A stretch of DNA of 64,000 nt from a bacterium (GTDB lineage: Bacteria > Zixibacteria > MSB-5A5 > GN15 > FEB-12): assembly GCA_043811375.1 (NCBI GenBank), contig JBDRNJ010000057.1, forward strand, positions 1 through 64,000. The letters run 5' to 3'. Below, in pieces: positions 11,657-19,492 of the stretch; within the stretch, counting starts at the first letter, position 1; each line of letters begins with the position of its first letter. The notes under the pieces were generated by a model, which saw only the letters and a program-made list of their open reading frames with translations, did no database searches and was not told the DNA's origin. Position numbers and translations under genes: made by a program.

Positions 11657-13105
11657 TTAATCCACGCAGTTGACATCGAGTTTCCGGGCCGCCCCGACCT
11701 CGTCCAGTCGGCGCACCGGTGTGTCGTGCGGAGCGGTAGTGACTGTCTCAGGATCAGTGATGGCTTCCTGCGCGATCTGTTTCATCACCGAGGCAAAGTA
11801 GTCGAGTGTTTCCTTGCTTTCGGTTTCGGTCGGCTCGATCATCAGCGCTTCCGGAACGATAAGCGGGAAGTAATTGGTGGGCGGATGCATGTCAAAATCA
11901 AGCAGGCGTTTGGCGATGTCCAGGGCGCGGACGCCCTGTTTTTTCTGCCGCGATGCCGAAATGACAAACTCGTGCATGCAGGGGATGTCATAAGGCAGTT
12001 CGTAATCCCGGCGCAGCAGTTCTTTGAGATAGTTGGCATTCAGGACGGCGTGTTCCGAGGCTCGCCTCAGACCGGCTCCGCCCAGTGTCCTGATATAAAC
12101 CCAGGCGCGCACTAAGTTGGCGAAATTGCCGTAGAAACTGTGCAACCGCCCGATGGAATGAGGGCGATCATAGTTGAAGTACAGTTTTCCGTCGTTGTCC
12201 TCCTGCAGCAACGGCAACGGCAGGAATTTGTCCAATTCAGCGGTGACACCTAGAGCTCCGGCGCCCGGCCCGCCGCCACCGTGTGGGGTGGAGAATGTTT
12301 TGTGCAGATTGAAGTGCATGATGTCGAAACCGACGTCCCCGGGTCGAAAAATACCCATGTTGGCGTTGAGGTTGGCGCCGTCCATATAAAGCAGGCCGCC
12401 CCGCTGGTGCACGATGTCCGCAATTTCTTTGACGTGGGTTTCAAACAGGCCCAGGGTGTTGGGGTTGGTCATCATGATGCCGGCGACGTCTTCATCCATG
12501 ACCTCGGCCACCGCCGATGGTGAAATAACGCCCTGCTCGTTGGAAGCGATCTGGATAGTGCTGAAACCTACCGACGCTACCGATGCCGGGTTGGTGCCAT
12601 GGGCCGAATCGGGGATAATGATATTACTCCGCGGTTGACCCCGGTCAATGTGACAGGCCCTCATGATCAGCAAACCGGCAAACTCGCCGTGGGCGCCGGC
12701 TACCGGTTGCAGTGAGATACCGGCAAAGCCTGAAATTTCCGACAGGAACTCCTGTAGTTCCCACATCAATTGCAGCAACCCCGGAGCCGAGCTGCATGGC
12801 GCCAGCGGGTGGTGACTGCGAAAGCCCGCCAGTGCCGCCGCGGCCTCGTTGGCCCGGGGGTTGTACTTCATGGTGCACGACCCTAGCGGATAGAAACCCT
12901 TATCTATGTGATGGTTCTTGACCGACAACCCGATGAAGTGACGCATCGCTTCACCTTCCGTCACTTCCGGTAGCGCCGCCGGCTGCGAGCGCCGGTGTAC
13001 CGCCGGAATAGCCGCCAGTATCTCCGATTCAGTTTTCATCGTTGACGGCAGTGTGTACCCGGTGCGACCACTTACCGACTTGTCGTATATCAATATCTTC
13101 TGCAT
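11657..13105 (-). CDS. gcvPB: Glycine dehydrogenase (decarboxylating) subunit 2
   Basis: PLGSCTMKYNP, SAHGTNPAS, NLHKTFSTPHGGGGPG. Confidence 0.96.
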   Translation of the reverse strand: MQKILIYDKSVSGRTGYTLPSTMKTESEILAAIPAVHRRSQPAALPEVTEGEAMRHFIGLSVKNHHIDKGFYPLGSCTMKYNPRANEAAAALAGFRSHHPLAPCSSAPGLLQLMWELQEFLSEISGFAGISLQPVAGAHGEFAGLLIMRACHIDRGQPRSNIIIPDSAHGTNPASVASVGFSTIQIASNEQGVISPSAVAEVMDEDVAGIMMTNPNTLGLFETHVKEIADIVHQRGGLLYMDGANLNANMGIFRPGDVGFDIMHFNLHKTFSTPHGGGGPGAGALGVTAELDKFLPLPLLQEDNDGKLYFNYDRPHSIGRLHSFYGNFANLVRAWVYIRTLGGAGLRRASEHAVLNANYLKELLRRDYELPYDIPCMHEFVISASRQKKQGVRALDIAKRLLDFDMHPPTNYFPLIVPEALMIEPTETESKETLDYFASVMKQIAQEAITDPETVTTAPHDTPVRRLDEVGAARKLDVNCVD

Positions 13106-13139: not shown

Positions 13140-14003
13140 CTACTTCTCCGCCTCGATTTCTCCCTTTAGTCCGGCTATCTGTTTCTGAGCGTACTCGACG
13201 TCTTCGGATTCAGGGTAGTGCTTTACGAACTGCTCGAAGGTCTCGATGGCCGCAGCGGTATCTCCCATCTGGCGGTAGACTATAGCTTTCCAGACTTCGG
13301 CGTTTTCAGCAAACATGGAGCCCTCAAAATCAGTCATGACGGTAGTGAAAGTCTTAAGGGCGGCATCGTACTCTTTGTTGCGACGATGCACATCGGCTAT
13401 GGCCAGAAGGCATTCACCGGACAGTGAATCATGTGGGTCACCGGCAGAAATAACTTTGTTATACCAGGCCGTCGCCTTCTCGGTGCCGCCGCGGTAGTGA
13501 TACTTCTCTGCTATCCGGTATGCCAGAGAGCGATCATTGTTGGTCTCAGCCTGAGCCAGCAAGTCGACCAGAGTACCGATCCCGTTCTTGTAATTGGTCA
13601 GTTCAATCAGCAGTGAATCGGGCGGCATATAACCGACCACCCGATCTACCTCGGCGCCCTGCGGATCAACCAGAACCAGTGTGGGGTAGCCCATGATATG
13701 GTAGGCGGCGGCCAGGGAGGTGTCCTGTTTGCCGTCTATTTTGGCCATAACCATTTCATTGGTGAAGAAGTCAATGACTTTCTGATCAGTCAACACGACC
13801 GTGTTGATCGTATCACACCACCTTCACGTCGGCGAATAAAAGTAGACTACGGCGTGCCGGTCATCGGCGGCCGCCTTGCTGATGGCCAGATTGGCGTCAG
13901 TTACGTATGGTGCCCTGGCGATGTCGTCCGTTACCCCGGCAGTAATTGTGACGGTAGCCGTCAGTACTACCACCATCATGACAATAAGATGAACTTTGCT
14001 CAT
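13140..14003 (-). CDS. Exported thioredoxin-fold + TPR protein; probable selenoprotein (UxxC)
   Basis: Read by hand from ATG 14003: signal peptide ... AVVYFYSPT-TGA-RWC ..., in frame with the 13140-13796 ORF; GYPT cis-Pro motif; C-terminal TPRs; 287 aa with Sec at residue 60. Confidence 0.85.
13790..13807 (-). promoter_or_regulatory. Bacterial SECIS-like hairpin
   Basis: UCAACAC-GGUC-GUGUUGA; the loop begins 23 nt after the UGA at 13826-13824. Confidence 0.75.
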
Positions 14004-14027
14004 AACTGTTCCCTGTATACGTATTTT

Positions 14028-14420
14028 TTATAGTCCGTTACTTTCTTCCGGTTGAATCAACTCGTCACCCAGGACGGCTTCGAGAATCAATGCCGCCGCT
14101 TCGCGGTACTCACGGGGCACCATGATGATATTCCCGCCACCCGAGAGAGCGGCCAGGCCCAAATGATTATCGATTCCGCGGCCATAGGCGGAGAAACTCG
14201 AGGAGAGTATTACCGACGGGATATTGTTTGAGTCCAGCGAACCGCGTGCGATGTCGGACTTCATGTCACCGGCGACCTGACCCACTATTGCCCATGAATC
14301 GTCCGGTGTCATCGCGGCAGTACCGGTTTCGGGAAGCCGGTCGACGAGTTCTTCGTCGCAGTCGGGGCAAACCCTGATGCCCGTTTCATATTCATATCGA
14401 CAGGCGGGACAGAAGGACAC
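14028..14420 (-). CDS. Zinc-ribbon + DUF2007-like putative signal-transducing protein
   Basis: CPAC...CPDC; A..L.SNNIP...I.VP pattern. Confidence 0.7.
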   Translation of the reverse strand: MSFCPACRYEYETGIRVCPDCDEELVDRLPETGTAAMTPDDSWAIVGQVAGDMKSDIARGSLDSNNIPSVILSSSFSAYGRGIDNHLGLAALSGGGNIIMVPREYREAAALILEAVLGDELIQPEESNGL

Positions 14421-14768
14421 TCAGTTTTCCTTTCTTCGCCACTTATCACCCACGGTCATATCCAGCACTTCGCAGGCTTCTTCGTGGAGGGCAGCCGGCA
14501 CCAGTATTTCAAAAGGTGCTTCATCACCCCGGTAAAATGGCCGCAGCGGTAAACCGATATTGCCGAAAAAGCCGTTTTTGCATCGAAGCATCGCCGGGAT
14601 GTTTGAGGAGACCAAGGCTTCGCGGGCCATGTCGGCGAATACTTTGTTTTCCAGTGTACCCAGCACGATCCACTCGTCTGTCGCAGCGTCGGGCAGTTTG
14701 TAGCCGCAGATGCAGCATTCACCGGAATCCCCCGGCAACTCATGTTTGCATTTGGGACAGAGTGCCAC
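14421..14768 (-). CDS. Zinc-ribbon + DUF2007-like protein (paralog of neighbour)
   Basis: CPKC...CCIC; ADMAREALVSSNIP...ILVP. Confidence 0.7.
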   Translation of the reverse strand: MALCPKCKHELPGDSGECCICGYKLPDAATDEWIVLGTLENKVFADMAREALVSSNIPAMLRCKNGFFGNIGLPLRPFYRGDEAPFEILVPAALHEEACEVLDMTVGDKWRRKEN

Positions 14769-16101
14769 CGGCTATTAACTCCCTGAGACCGTCGACCAAA
14801 TCGCCGATCTCCTGTTCGGTTCGTTTCTCGGTGAGAGCCACAATCAGACAATCGTCCATGCCCGGATACCAGCGGCCGGCAGCGATGCCCGGCAGAACCC
14901 GGCGTTGAACCATGGTGCGGATCAGTTCCCGCGCCGATACCGGTATCCGCAGCGCAAACTCGCGGACAAACGGTTGGTCGAAATAAAGCCGGCAGCCCTC
15001 AAGTTCTTCAAGTGCTTTAGCTGCCTGCTGCGCCTTTTCGGCCGACAGCAGGGCTACCTGTCTGAGACCACTCCTGCCCAGTAGCGTCAGGTATACTGAC
15101 GCTGCGGTTGCACACAGGGCCTGATTGGTGCAGATATTGGAGGTTGCTTTTTCACGCCGTATATGTTGTTCCCGCGTTTGCAACACCAGGACAAACCCGG
15201 TTTTGCCGTCGACATCGGTGGTCCGTCCGGCGATGCGTCCGGGCAGGCTGCGAACCAGTTCCCGGCGAGCGGCAAAGAAGCCCAGCAGCGGGCCGCCGAA
15301 GGAGAGCGGCAGACCCAGCGGTTGCCCTTCGCCGACCACGATGTCGGCTCCGTACTCGGCGGGAGTTTTCAGCAGAGCCCCAGCGATCGGGTCAATGGAC
15401 ACGATCAATTTGCCGCCGACGTTGTGAATGATCTCGGACGCCGCCGCCATATCTTCCAGGCAGCCGAAGAAGTTCGGTTGACTCATCAACAGACAGGCCG
15501 TCCGGTCATCCACGGCCGCCTGCAGGCGATCCAAATCACACAGTCCCTCATCCATGGGAATTGTAATCAATGAAGCATCGCGACCGGAAAGATAGGTTGT
15601 AATCACCTCACGATAAAGGGGGCTGACTGTCTCGGCGACGATCACGTTGGGACGGCGCGTGCTCCTGGTTGCGATTACAGCCGCCTCGGCGGCGGCGGTG
15701 GCTCCGTCGTACATGGAAGCGTTGGCCACGTCCATGCCGGTAAGACGGCAGATGTGTGTTTGAAACTCGTAGATAACCTGCAACGTTCCCTGCGACACCT
15801 CCGGTTGATAAGGCGTGTAGGCTGTCATAAACTCCGGGCGGCTGATAACCGATCCGACAGCTGCCGGGATATAGTGATCGTAGACGCCGCCCCCGGCAAA
15901 ACAGGCCAGGCCGCTCAGGTTGTTCTGCGACAGCTTTTCCGCTTCGCGCAACACTTCCATCTCGGAGTGTGCCGGTATATCCAGCGGGCGTTGCAGCCGC
16001 AACTCGGTGGGTATGGAAGACAGCAGTTGTTCGATATCCGCCGCACCGATCTTTTGCAGCATGGTCAGGCGGTCGTTGTCGGTGTGGGGAACGTATGGCA
16101 T
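14740..16101 (-). CDS. gcvPA: Glycine dehydrogenase (decarboxylating) subunit 1
   Basis: TAYTPYQPEVSQG, NASMYDG, REQHIRREKATSNICTNQ. Confidence 0.96.
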   Translation of the reverse strand: MPYVPHTDNDRLTMLQKIGAADIEQLLSSIPTELRLQRPLDIPAHSEMEVLREAEKLSQNNLSGLACFAGGGVYDHYIPAAVGSVISRPEFMTAYTPYQPEVSQGTLQVIYEFQTHICRLTGMDVANASMYDGATAAAEAAVIATRSTRRPNVIVAETVSPLYREVITTYLSGRDASLITIPMDEGLCDLDRLQAAVDDRTACLLMSQPNFFGCLEDMAAASEIIHNVGGKLIVSIDPIAGALLKTPAEYGADIVVGEGQPLGLPLSFGGPLLGFFAARRELVRSLPGRIAGRTTDVDGKTGFVLVLQTREQHIRREKATSNICTNQALCATAASVYLTLLGRSGLRQVALLSAEKAQQAAKALEELEGCRLYFDQPFVREFALRIPVSARELIRTMVQRRVLPGIAAGRWYPGMDDCLIVALTEKRTEQEIGDLVDGLRELIAGGTLSQMQT

Positions 16102-18340: not shown

Positions 18341-19492
18341 TCAGAATTTCGCAAGATCACCGGAAGCGTCCGATGGCTCCTGGTTGTCGGATTGGGTTGA
18401 TTCGTCCTGCCACCTCTCCGAGCTGCCGGTAATACCTTTGGTGCGCAGGTCGAAATCATCCGGGTTGCTGGCGTTTTCCATCGCCTCCTCGAACGAGATC
18501 ATGCCCTGTTTATGCAGTTTCATGATGGCTTGATCGAATGTCTGCATACCGTACTGAACGCCGCCCTGTTCCATCAACTCGATGATATCAATCGTTTTAT
18601 CCGGGTCCATGATGCACTCTTTGACGGCCCCGGAGCTGACCATAATTTCCAGCGCCGGCACTCGTCCGGGCATATCGCAGCGGGCCAGCAGTCGCTGGCA
18701 GACAATAGCTTTCAGTGTCCCGGCCAGCAACAGACGGATCTGCTGGTGCTGGTGCGGAGGGAAGAAGGAGATAATGCGGGTGACTGTCTCCACGACATTG
18801 AGAGTGTGCAGAGTGGTCAGCACCAAATGACCGGTGTCGGCCGCTGTCAACGCTATCGACATCGTTTCCAGGTCACGCACTTCACCGATGAGAATTACAT
18901 CGGGATCCTGTCGGAAGGCGTGACGCAACGCCGAGGCAAACGTCTCCGTATCGCCGCCCACCTCGCGCTGGGTGATTATCGATTTCTTGTCACGGTAGAT
19001 ATATTCGATGGGGTCTTCGACGGTAAGTATATTGTCCTGGCGGGTGGAGTTCAACTGCTCAATCATCGCCGCCAGTGTGGTCGATTTGCCGGATCCGGTT
19101 GTGCCGGTGATGACAACCAGGCCCCGGCGGGTTTTAGCCAGTTGCTGGATGGTGTCGGGCAGATTCAGTTCCTTAAACGATGGTACCGTGGTGTTGACGG
19201 CGCGGATAGCGATACCCGAGGTTCCGCGCTGCCGGAAAAGATTGATACGGAAACGTCCCAGTTTGGCTACTGAAAGAGCCAGATCCATTTCGTTCTTGCG
19301 GAAAAAGCGTTCCCGCTGTTTTTCATTGAGTATCTGGGAGACAACCTGTTCCATGCGGTCAATTGTCATGGGATCGGTGGCGATCTGTTCCAACTGGCCG
19401 TTTACCCTCAAGTGTGGTCGTACGCCGACACGGATGTGCAAGTCTGAGGCCTTGCGGTCAAGCATCTCAACCAGCATTTGCTTCAGATTCAT
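18341..19492 (-). CDS. pilT: Type IV pilus retraction ATPase (PilT/PilU family)
   Basis: ASDLH, GTTGSGKSTT, EDPIE, RQDPDVILIGEVRD, TGHLVLTTLHT, GMQTFDQ. Confidence 0.88.
   Translation of the reverse strand: MNLKQMLVEMLDRKASDLHIRVGVRPHLRVNGQLEQIATDPMTIDRMEQVVSQILNEKQRERFFRKNEMDLALSVAKLGRFRINLFRQRGTSGIAIRAVNTTVPSFKELNLPDTIQQLAKTRRGLVVITGTTGSGKSTTLAAMIEQLNSTRQDNILTVEDPIEYIYRDKKSIITQREVGGDTETFASALRHAFRQDPDVILIGEVRDLETMSIALTAADTGHLVLTTLHTLNVVETVTRIISFFPPHQHQQIRLLLAGTLKAIVCQRLLARCDMPGRVPALEIMVSSGAVKECIMDPDKTIDIIELMEQGGVQYGMQTFDQAIMKLHKQGMISFEEAMENASNPDDFDLRTKGITGSSERWQDESTQSDNQEPSDASGDLAKF

Follow-up and report, generated by a model that had tools for sequence, protein, structure and literature searches.

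The gene at positions 14003..13140 (-) of the window, the 64,000-nt stretch of Zixibacteria DNA that was analysed, is almost certainly a single intact gene in which a UGA at codon 60 encodes selenocysteine (Sec). Comparison with homologues supports it well as a selenoprotein gene and assigns it to the known class of thioredoxin-fold UxxC proteins as a variant in domain make-up, with a predicted signal peptide in front of the thioredoxin-like domain and TPRs behind it.

Reading frame, domains and distribution of the gene

The coding sequence (864 nt, 287 aa) begins with ATG at 14003, ends with a TAG at 13140, and has just one in-frame TGA. This is codon 60 (13826-13824 (-)), embedded in VVYFYSPT-TGA-RWC (SPT-U-RWC). 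In the table-11 ORF list, the gene begins at GTG 13796, which yields a product of 218 aa; a sequence-only reading had extended this frame upstream to ATG 14003, and both its coordinates and the 287 residues were confirmed. The features of the gene are as follows.

13140..14003 (-): predicted full coding sequence, 287 aa, Sec at residue 60 (reading frame; full-length homologues in 61/61 genomes)
14010..14014 (-): Shine-Dalgarno-like AGGGA, 6 nt before ATG 14003 (from the sequence; function presumed)
13938..14003 (-): predicted signal peptide, residues ~1-22 (hydrophobic 10-mer mean 3.2; residues 1-25 with pLDDT <50)
13587..13916 (-): predicted thioredoxin-fold domain, residues ~30-139 (Pfam PF13098 and PF00085, AlphaFold2 model, structure matches)
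13824..13826 (-): TGA read as Sec60, attacking position of UxxC (TGA 79, Cys 61, no motif 6, in 146 copies)
13815..13817 (-): Cys63, putative resolving residue of U-R-W-C (Cys in 24/24 aligned Sec copies)
13790..13807 (-): predicted SECIS hairpin, 7-bp stem, GGUC loop at 13800-13797, loop 23 nt after the UGA (conservation and covariation)
13680..13691 (-): G-Y-P-T loop including P107 (P107 and T108 invariant in 67 sequences)
13167..13571 (-): predicted helical TPR domain, residues ~145-279 (Pfam TPR_6/TPR_14/TPR_12; BamD and YbgF structure matches)

The expectation that standard gene callers would split the gene is borne out by the databases. Among 120 listed homologues, 79 begin after the UGA, are shorter than 270 aa and lack the CxxC region, and 41 are full-length. 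The truncated products (218-222 aa) miss both the signal peptide and the active site and carry GenBank names such as TPR protein or BamD. None of the 120 listed homologues contains a U, which is displayed as C there, so that a U-bearing record could be masked. A scan for promoters and terminators returned 7 and 13 sites, compared with 3.9 and 7.3 in shuffles, and nothing interpretable. A search for RNA data sets with the gene listed none, which speaks neither for nor against its expression.

The proposed fusion of a thioredoxin to TPRs in one 287-aa product is upheld by Pfam domains and by the predicted model. PF13098 (Thioredoxin_2, 46 bits) and PF00085 (Thioredoxin, 40.6 bits), both above cut-off, cover residues 45-132, and TPRs (TPR_6/TPR_14/TPR_12) lie at residues 161-271; with NCBIfam models, the protein as a whole stays below every family cut-off. 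In the AlphaFold2 model (pLDDT 91.4, pTM 0.83), a thioredoxin fold (residues ~30-139) is followed by eight helices (residues 145-279). Both the UxxC thioredoxin domain and the conserved proline loop are present; the latter most commonly reads GYPT (69/140 copies), and we take its P107 to be the predicted cis-proline of the thioredoxin fold. The N-terminal extension had also been read as a signal peptide, in agreement with a hydrophobic 10-mer (mean 3.2) from residue 6, as judged by a hydrophobicity rule alone. The same rule, which is our own and has no negative control, finds a hydrophobic N-terminal stretch in 139/140 copies and a lipobox-like motif in 36. The protein is, on this predicted N-terminus, very likely exported.

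The named homologues belong mostly to Candidatus Zixiibacteriota. A search profile built from 67 sequences detects the family in 279/285 Zixibacteria genomes and in 198/198 genomes of the phylum that are at least 90% complete. A protein library clustered at 50% identity contains 380 proteins at E <= 1e-30, and the named clusters among the 20 examined are from Zixibacteria; the Atlas also lists Acidobacteriota Trx-TPR clusters at 0.94-0.95.

The active-site codon was read in 146 copies from 144 loci, a non-random sample in which related copies are not independent. The set consists of the best hits of two genome searches and 60 hand-picked genomes of other orders; it includes the window's own copy and a paralogue (L080) and leaves out 58 named loci, six loci that were duplicates, and three weak hits to unrelated sequences. 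Column 60 holds TGA in 79 copies from 14 families, Cys in 61 (TGC 39, TGT 22), and a degraded motif in six, and at least 215 open codons follow it in 139/140 copies. All 41 full-length database proteins have Cys at this column, among them P0004 (59% identity; SPTCTWC), and the second position of the motif, residue 63, is Cys in 24/24 aligned Sec copies. The sequence-only reading had placed the TGA (13826-13824) at the attacking Cys of a CxxC and had anticipated a Cys/TGA pairing at residue 60 among homologues; the aligned cysteines and the split of 61 Cys and 79 TGA among the 146 copies agree with both, and the recurrence of TGA in 79/146 copies rules out a sequencing error. Short contigs from two runs of two studies (X1 and X2, depth 2-3) cover position 13824 with no difference listed; one of them may be the source sample. 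Run X4 does not reach the codon.

In the six copies without the motif, one cysteine or both are gone (CPWS, CPYS, WGEWC, WSAYS), which means that not every lineage needs dithiol chemistry; these copies (L190, L197, L226, and L229 of family f16, L210 and L225 of f17) remain in the gcv block described below. Several other loci depart from the common pattern. Tandem duplicates (L042 in G015:C3, L057 in G017:C4) pair one copy that has TGA and a SECIS core with one that has Cys and no core. Two paralogues outside the gcv block (L080 in G036:C54, L252 at G274:C4:493512) have a U-G-S-C motif; in f20 genomes, Cys is found in the copy linked to gcv and 1 TGA in a paralogue (the second hit); one copy (G100:C184:313-1119) has TAG instead of TGA inside the match.

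The SECIS hairpin and the selenocysteine machinery

The 7-bp stem with a GGUC loop starting 23 nt after the TGA, noticed from the sequence, was found as described: positions 13807-13801 pair with 13796-13790 and close the loop at 13800-13797. The published model of bacterial SECIS elements comprises a loop of 3-9 nt whose first two nucleotides include a G, a stem of 4-16 bp, a spacing of 16-37 nt, and an energy <= -7.5 kcal/mol (PMC13188914). With its 4-nt loop, 7 bp, and spacing of 23 nt, the window's predicted SECIS fits this standard model in geometry; the bare stem has an energy of -7.3 kcal/mol against the limit of -7.5, and the surrounding 45-nt region reaches -12.7 in a minimum-energy fold that uses another register than the 7-bp stem.

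Folding stability alone is unremarkable (z -1.29 and -1.16, equalled by 23 and 26 of 200 shuffles) and was rejected as evidence, because it is not beyond chance. A loose filter for GGU hairpins passes 158 of the 36,396 TGA triplets in the genome, mostly by chance, so that searching a genome for TGA followed by a GGU hairpin is of no use for finding selenoproteins. Since the hairpin by itself folds no better than shuffled sequence and hits of the chance type are this numerous, the case must rest on comparison.

Among the members of the window's family (f1), Sec copies use the hairpin codons ACG (24/24), GTC (24/24), and GTG (23/24), and none of the other columns among the 58 that are comparable is as constrained (median 0.40); in the set's 14 Cys copies, the codons at these places are mixed. 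In a larger f1 set, the 8-nt core of the hairpin is present in 36/36 Sec copies and in 8/25 Cys copies. Across 35 distinct f1 Sec copies, the seven pairs are formed in 99.6% of 245 cells, a pairing that none of 500 shuffles matches and that drops to 27-52% in slid controls; 14 cells have changed on both sides of the stem, 13 of them by one C-G/G-C swap. Kinship inflates such measures of covariation, but the synonymous constraint is tied to the TGA state. When the published geometry is coded as a rule of our own (after PMC13188914, section 5), a G-loop hairpin at <= -4 kcal/mol is found in 64/79 Sec copies versus 8/61 Cys copies. Judged by this comparison among homologues, the pairing of Cys with TGA, the invariant synonymous positions, and the covariation lift the predicted hairpin above chance.

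The genome (G000, 95% complete) encodes all four parts of the Sec machinery for which a search had been suggested, each above its cut-off: selA (C68:55732), selB (C68:57096), selD (C27:74133), which itself has an in-frame TGA, and the tRNA-Sec gene selC (C9:69471). Within the order, selA was found in 58/61 genomes; the three without a selA hit are G003 (85% complete, Cys copy), G026 (56%, TGA copy), and G054 (93%, TGA copy). Loss of the Sec machinery was rejected as the cause of nearly all Cys copies, given selA in 58/61 genomes.

General reassignment of TGA was likewise rejected, because TGA serves as a normal stop in the rest of the genome and is the commonest stop of long coding ORFs (427/1016). 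That the TGA of the window's gene really ends translation, in a split gene, a pseudogene, or a misassembly, or that a different code has it decoded as Trp or Gly, is extremely improbable. Gene callers do report a product of 218-222 aa after the TGA, and 79/120 listed homologues are of that kind, but a stop would not be expected at the same catalytic column in 79 copies of 14 families, nor with synonymous constraint linked to TGA and with covariation; the reading as Trp or Gly is opposed by the aligned residue, which is Cys, and by the ordinary use of TGA as a stop.

A motif scan of the same genome found further TGA genes of known Sec types with G-loop hairpins: SelD and what we take, from their motifs, to be a HesB-like protein and two UGC/DUF1573-like proteins. 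The probable Sec codons lie at C72:221768 (+) in the HesB-like protein (FG-U-GG), at C51:3534 (-) and C44:53043 (-) in the U-G-C proteins, and at C27:74163 (+) in SelD, and the hairpin loops at these four codons differ (UGGAU, GUCC, GAAAA, GUU). Another in-frame TGA, in a response-regulator-like frame (C65:37009 (-); SDIKMH-TGA-LDGMGLL), has no hairpin and is probably a nonsense change. A scan by coding score returned 794 noisy candidates, of which 26 passed a motif and hairpin filter and about five are recognisable.

SECIS position and Sec/Cys switching among relatives

The hairpin is found at different distances from the UGA in the relatives. In Sec copies, the best G-loop hairpin by our rule starts at +16 (families f9, f10, f11, f18), +18 (f15), +20 (f14), +23 (f1, f3), or +36 (f8). 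The 16 Sec copies without an in-range G-loop hairpin belong to f2, f5, f7, and f19, together with one f8 copy dropped by a stricter filter. Of these, 14 have a hairpin with an AGUU or CGUG loop at +44, +52, or +64 (<= -4 kcal/mol), compared with 2/63 other Sec copies and 10/61 Cys copies, a contrast to which four families contribute and whose thresholds were set after the data had been seen. The copies with a distant hairpin are L063-L066, L171, L201, L213, L185-L214 (the f5 Sec copies), L191, L195, and L222. An intervening hairpin without the G has a perfect stem in 3/4 copies of f2, 5/5 of f5, and 1/3 of f19, and imperfect stems occur in most others.

These distant hairpins are candidate non-canonical SECIS elements of the relatives; all three of their positions (+44, +52, +64) lie beyond the 16-37 nt of the published model. 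By the BSepDB account, 87.4% of bacterial selenoprotein genes have a canonical SECIS and ~13% do not. The matched near and distant candidates provide a handle on what these non-canonical ~13% use.

Switching between Sec and Cys was traced on a quick IQ-TREE tree of 140 copies, in which the column of codon 60 was masked. The Sec/Cys label needs 30 changes on this tree (shuffled mean 45.7), of which at least 17 are forced by starred branches; f1 alone needs 17 on a tree with many weak forks, and the counts carry no direction. Cys copies at five points on the tree still have the SECIS core (L029, L035, L048, L152, and the group of L147), and L152 and L157 form a Sec/Cys pair of near-identical proteins. 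A contig from run X3 that is ~91% identical to the window's gene (53 differences over 599 nt, at a depth of 6.6) has TGT as codon 60; it has no listed change in the hairpin core, with 12 differences not shown, and apparently represents, as a single contig, a very recent switch with an intact core. The SECIS core is identical in all f1 Sec copies and persists in Cys copies; together with the TGT of the X3 contig, this suggests that several of the f1 changes ran from Sec to Cys. Genomes with switched copies keep selA wherever it is findable.

Sec-to-Cys reversions have been called rare outside FdhA and SelD (PMC13188914, section 10). Remnants of SECIS elements are already known to persist after reversion. 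As reported by Zhang et al. 2006, 15 Sec-to-Cys events in four families stand against 33 Cys-to-Sec events (PMC1794560). The matched Sec/Cys pairs make the frequency of Sec-to-Cys reversion in thiol oxidoreductases testable. A broader scenario, in which this exported enzyme of the phylum core had its SECIS rebuilt at eight spacings (+16, +18, +20, +23, +36, +44, +52, +64), the three distant ones working because a spacer hairpin pulls them closer to the ribosome, and Sec, contrary to the published view, reverted to Cys many times in Sec-competent genomes, is put forward tentatively, at slightly less than an even chance.

Genomic context, proposed function and known systems

The gene lies in a block with the order accC-gcvH-gcvPA-(two small zinc-ribbon/DUF2007-like ORFs)-Trx-TPR gene-gcvPB. 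Its nearest neighbours are as follows.

14028..14420 (-): small zinc-ribbon/DUF2007-like ORF, 130 aa, upstream neighbour (Atlas neighbours carry PF09413; no Pfam hit by hmmscan)
14421..14768 (-): second small CxxC/CxxC ORF, 115 aa, clusters with the first (no hit to Pfam or NCBIfam models)
14740..16101 (-): gcvPA, first subunit of the glycine cleavage P protein, upstream (PF02347)
11657..13105 (-): gcvPB, starting 34 nt past the stop of the Sec gene (PF21478/PF02347)

Upstream gcvPA is present in 130/144 loci and downstream gcvPB in 131/144 (both in 123, either in 138), and many of the missing gcv neighbours are contig ends. Among 20 longer stretches from across the phylum, 16 keep accC-gcvH-gcvPA ahead of the gene, most of them also pepQ, accB, and pilT; the remaining four represent copies at other genomic sites. 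The two small CxxC-x-CxxC/DUF2007-like ORFs precede the gene in 91-94 of 144 loci, and the zinc ribbon of one weakly matches a selenoprotein DG model (23 of 130 bits). A gene for what we take, from its sequence, to be a pilT-like ATPase (18341-19492 (-)) lies between accB and accC, an order kept across much of the phylum.

The position between gcvPA and gcvPB, one or both of which flank the gene in 138/144 loci, would be explained by a direct role in glycine cleavage, such as the transfer of electrons from the lipoyl H protein. This is very unlikely: glycine cleavage is a cytoplasmic process, and 139/140 copies have a signal-like N-terminus; the genome has normal L and T proteins; the entire pepQ-accB-pilT-accC-gcv block, with its unrelated functions, is equally conserved; and the Sec copies of f7 and f8 and the paralogues of f20 sit away from gcv. 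Because genes of unrelated function share the block and the protein seems to be exported, we infer that the linkage reflects conserved gene order and shared transcription. A stand-in for the glycine cleavage L protein was rejected, since the L protein is present, and a stand-in for BamD because a separate BamD is encoded at C87:18254. The genome also encodes a DsbD of 646 aa with its catalytic cysteines.

The function that we favour is that of a reductase, which seems probable by analogy with the closest characterised thioredoxin domains; the full explanation, an exported Sec60 enzyme that would be recharged by DsbD and reduce disulfides in the envelope with TPRs for docking clients, is only marginally less so. 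The complex of SelB and tRNA(Sec) would bind the GGUC hairpin and recode UGA as Sec60, and the N-terminal peptide would direct the protein to the periplasm, in many orthologues as a lipoprotein. Sec60 would attack a disulfide or an oxidised cysteine of an envelope protein, Cys63 would resolve the resulting selenylsulfide, DsbD would re-reduce the enzyme, and the BamD/YbgF-like TPRs would dock the client or a partner.

In a wide structure search, the thioredoxin part matches best (Z 15.1-15.4) a Thermus thioredoxin, DsbH (Z 15.2), and DsbD-gamma (Z 15.1), and the TPRs match BamD (Z 17.0-17.3) and YbgF (Z 16.5); a shared fold does not in itself show a function. DsbH of Chlamydia pneumoniae (PDB 2ju5; NF043050) and DsbD gamma are the closest characterised structures of the thioredoxin domain (17-21% identity), and DsbH is reported to act in the periplasm as a reducing dithiol oxidoreductase (PMC5193440). 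However, the matched DsbH structure has no TPR domain, and DsbH is not listed as a selenoprotein; the window's protein scores 33.1 bits with NF043050 against a cut-off of 190 (Cys orthologues 26-47 bits).

Formation or shuffling of disulfides in exported proteins by a selenoprotein of the DsbA/DsbC/PDI type, as opposed to their reduction, is improbable. PDI-family chains rank high in the sequence hits, and an extra helical domain that binds clients is typical of isomerases, but the 50 best structural matches comprise DsbH, DsbD-gamma, and thioredoxins and no chain of the DsbA or DsbC type, and the W-[U/C]-x-W-C motif is thioredoxin-like.

A selenoprotein that acts mainly as an envelope chaperedoxin, whose TPRs hold unfolded or oxidised proteins and whose Sec or Cys forms protective mixed bonds like the cytoplasmic CnoX, is also unlikely, if less so. 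CnoX/YbbN (PDB 3qou) shares the order of an N-terminal thioredoxin and TPRs at a similar length and takes the first three places in the Foldseek ranking; all 198 good genomes retain the gene even though 6/146 copies have lost the dithiol, and CnoX is described as joining holdase and redox-protective roles (PMC11241051). The similarity is low, however (TM 0.28-0.30, 13-15% identity, rmsd over 21 A; 0.28 and 13% for 3qou), the TPRs fit BamD and YbgF better, and the full [U/C]xxC is retained in 140/146 copies. Moreover, CnoX works with DnaK/GroEL, to which it passes its clients, and with thioredoxin reductase (PMC11241051), and DnaK/GroEL would be out of reach of an exported protein. A chaperedoxin of the CnoX type would lack an export signal, whereas the hydrophobicity rule finds a hydrophobic N-terminus in 139/140 copies of the present family, and the window's protein combines a signal-like peptide with UxxC.

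Thioredoxin-fold selenoproteins with UxxC are a known class (PMC13188914 Table 1, PF00085 and PF13098), and two of its entries, the PF13098 'Thiol:disulfide interchange protein' (WP_011366075.1) and the PF00085 Sec-thioredoxin, share with the window's protein the Pfam domains for which it scores above cut-off, the UxxC, and a SECIS just 3' of the UGA. Unlike the catalogued UxxC families, the window's protein adds a C-terminal TPR domain, best matched in structure by the periplasmic TPR proteins BamD and YbgF (CpoB), and a predicted signal peptide. Scores remain below the family cut-offs for BamD (TIGR03302, 46.6 bits against 81.4) and for the selenoprotein TsoB (NF045694, a rhodanese/DsbD fusion), which the thioredoxin part alone matches with 50.1 bits against 805. 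No TPR fusion figures among the 119 prokaryotic selenoprotein families catalogued in the main text and table of PMC13188914 (2026), which mention neither TPRs nor signal peptides nor the periplasm; the main texts of the BSepDB and deep-Sep papers do not mention TPRs either. At the level of listings and abstracts, a literature search found no description of the Zixibacteria Trx-TPR family. BSepDB, as outlined in its paper, searched genomes by tblastn with known families and has at least 7 Zixibacteria rows, and some copies may already be included under a thioredoxin label.

The full-length reading repairs the annotation of a core gene of the entire phylum, most of whose listed homologues begin after the UGA. 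The main weight of the finding lies in the phylum-wide reach of the family, the repeated switching between Sec and Cys, and the shifting SECIS of the relatives, and the architecture, which is new to the catalogue, points to selenium chemistry in the cell envelope.
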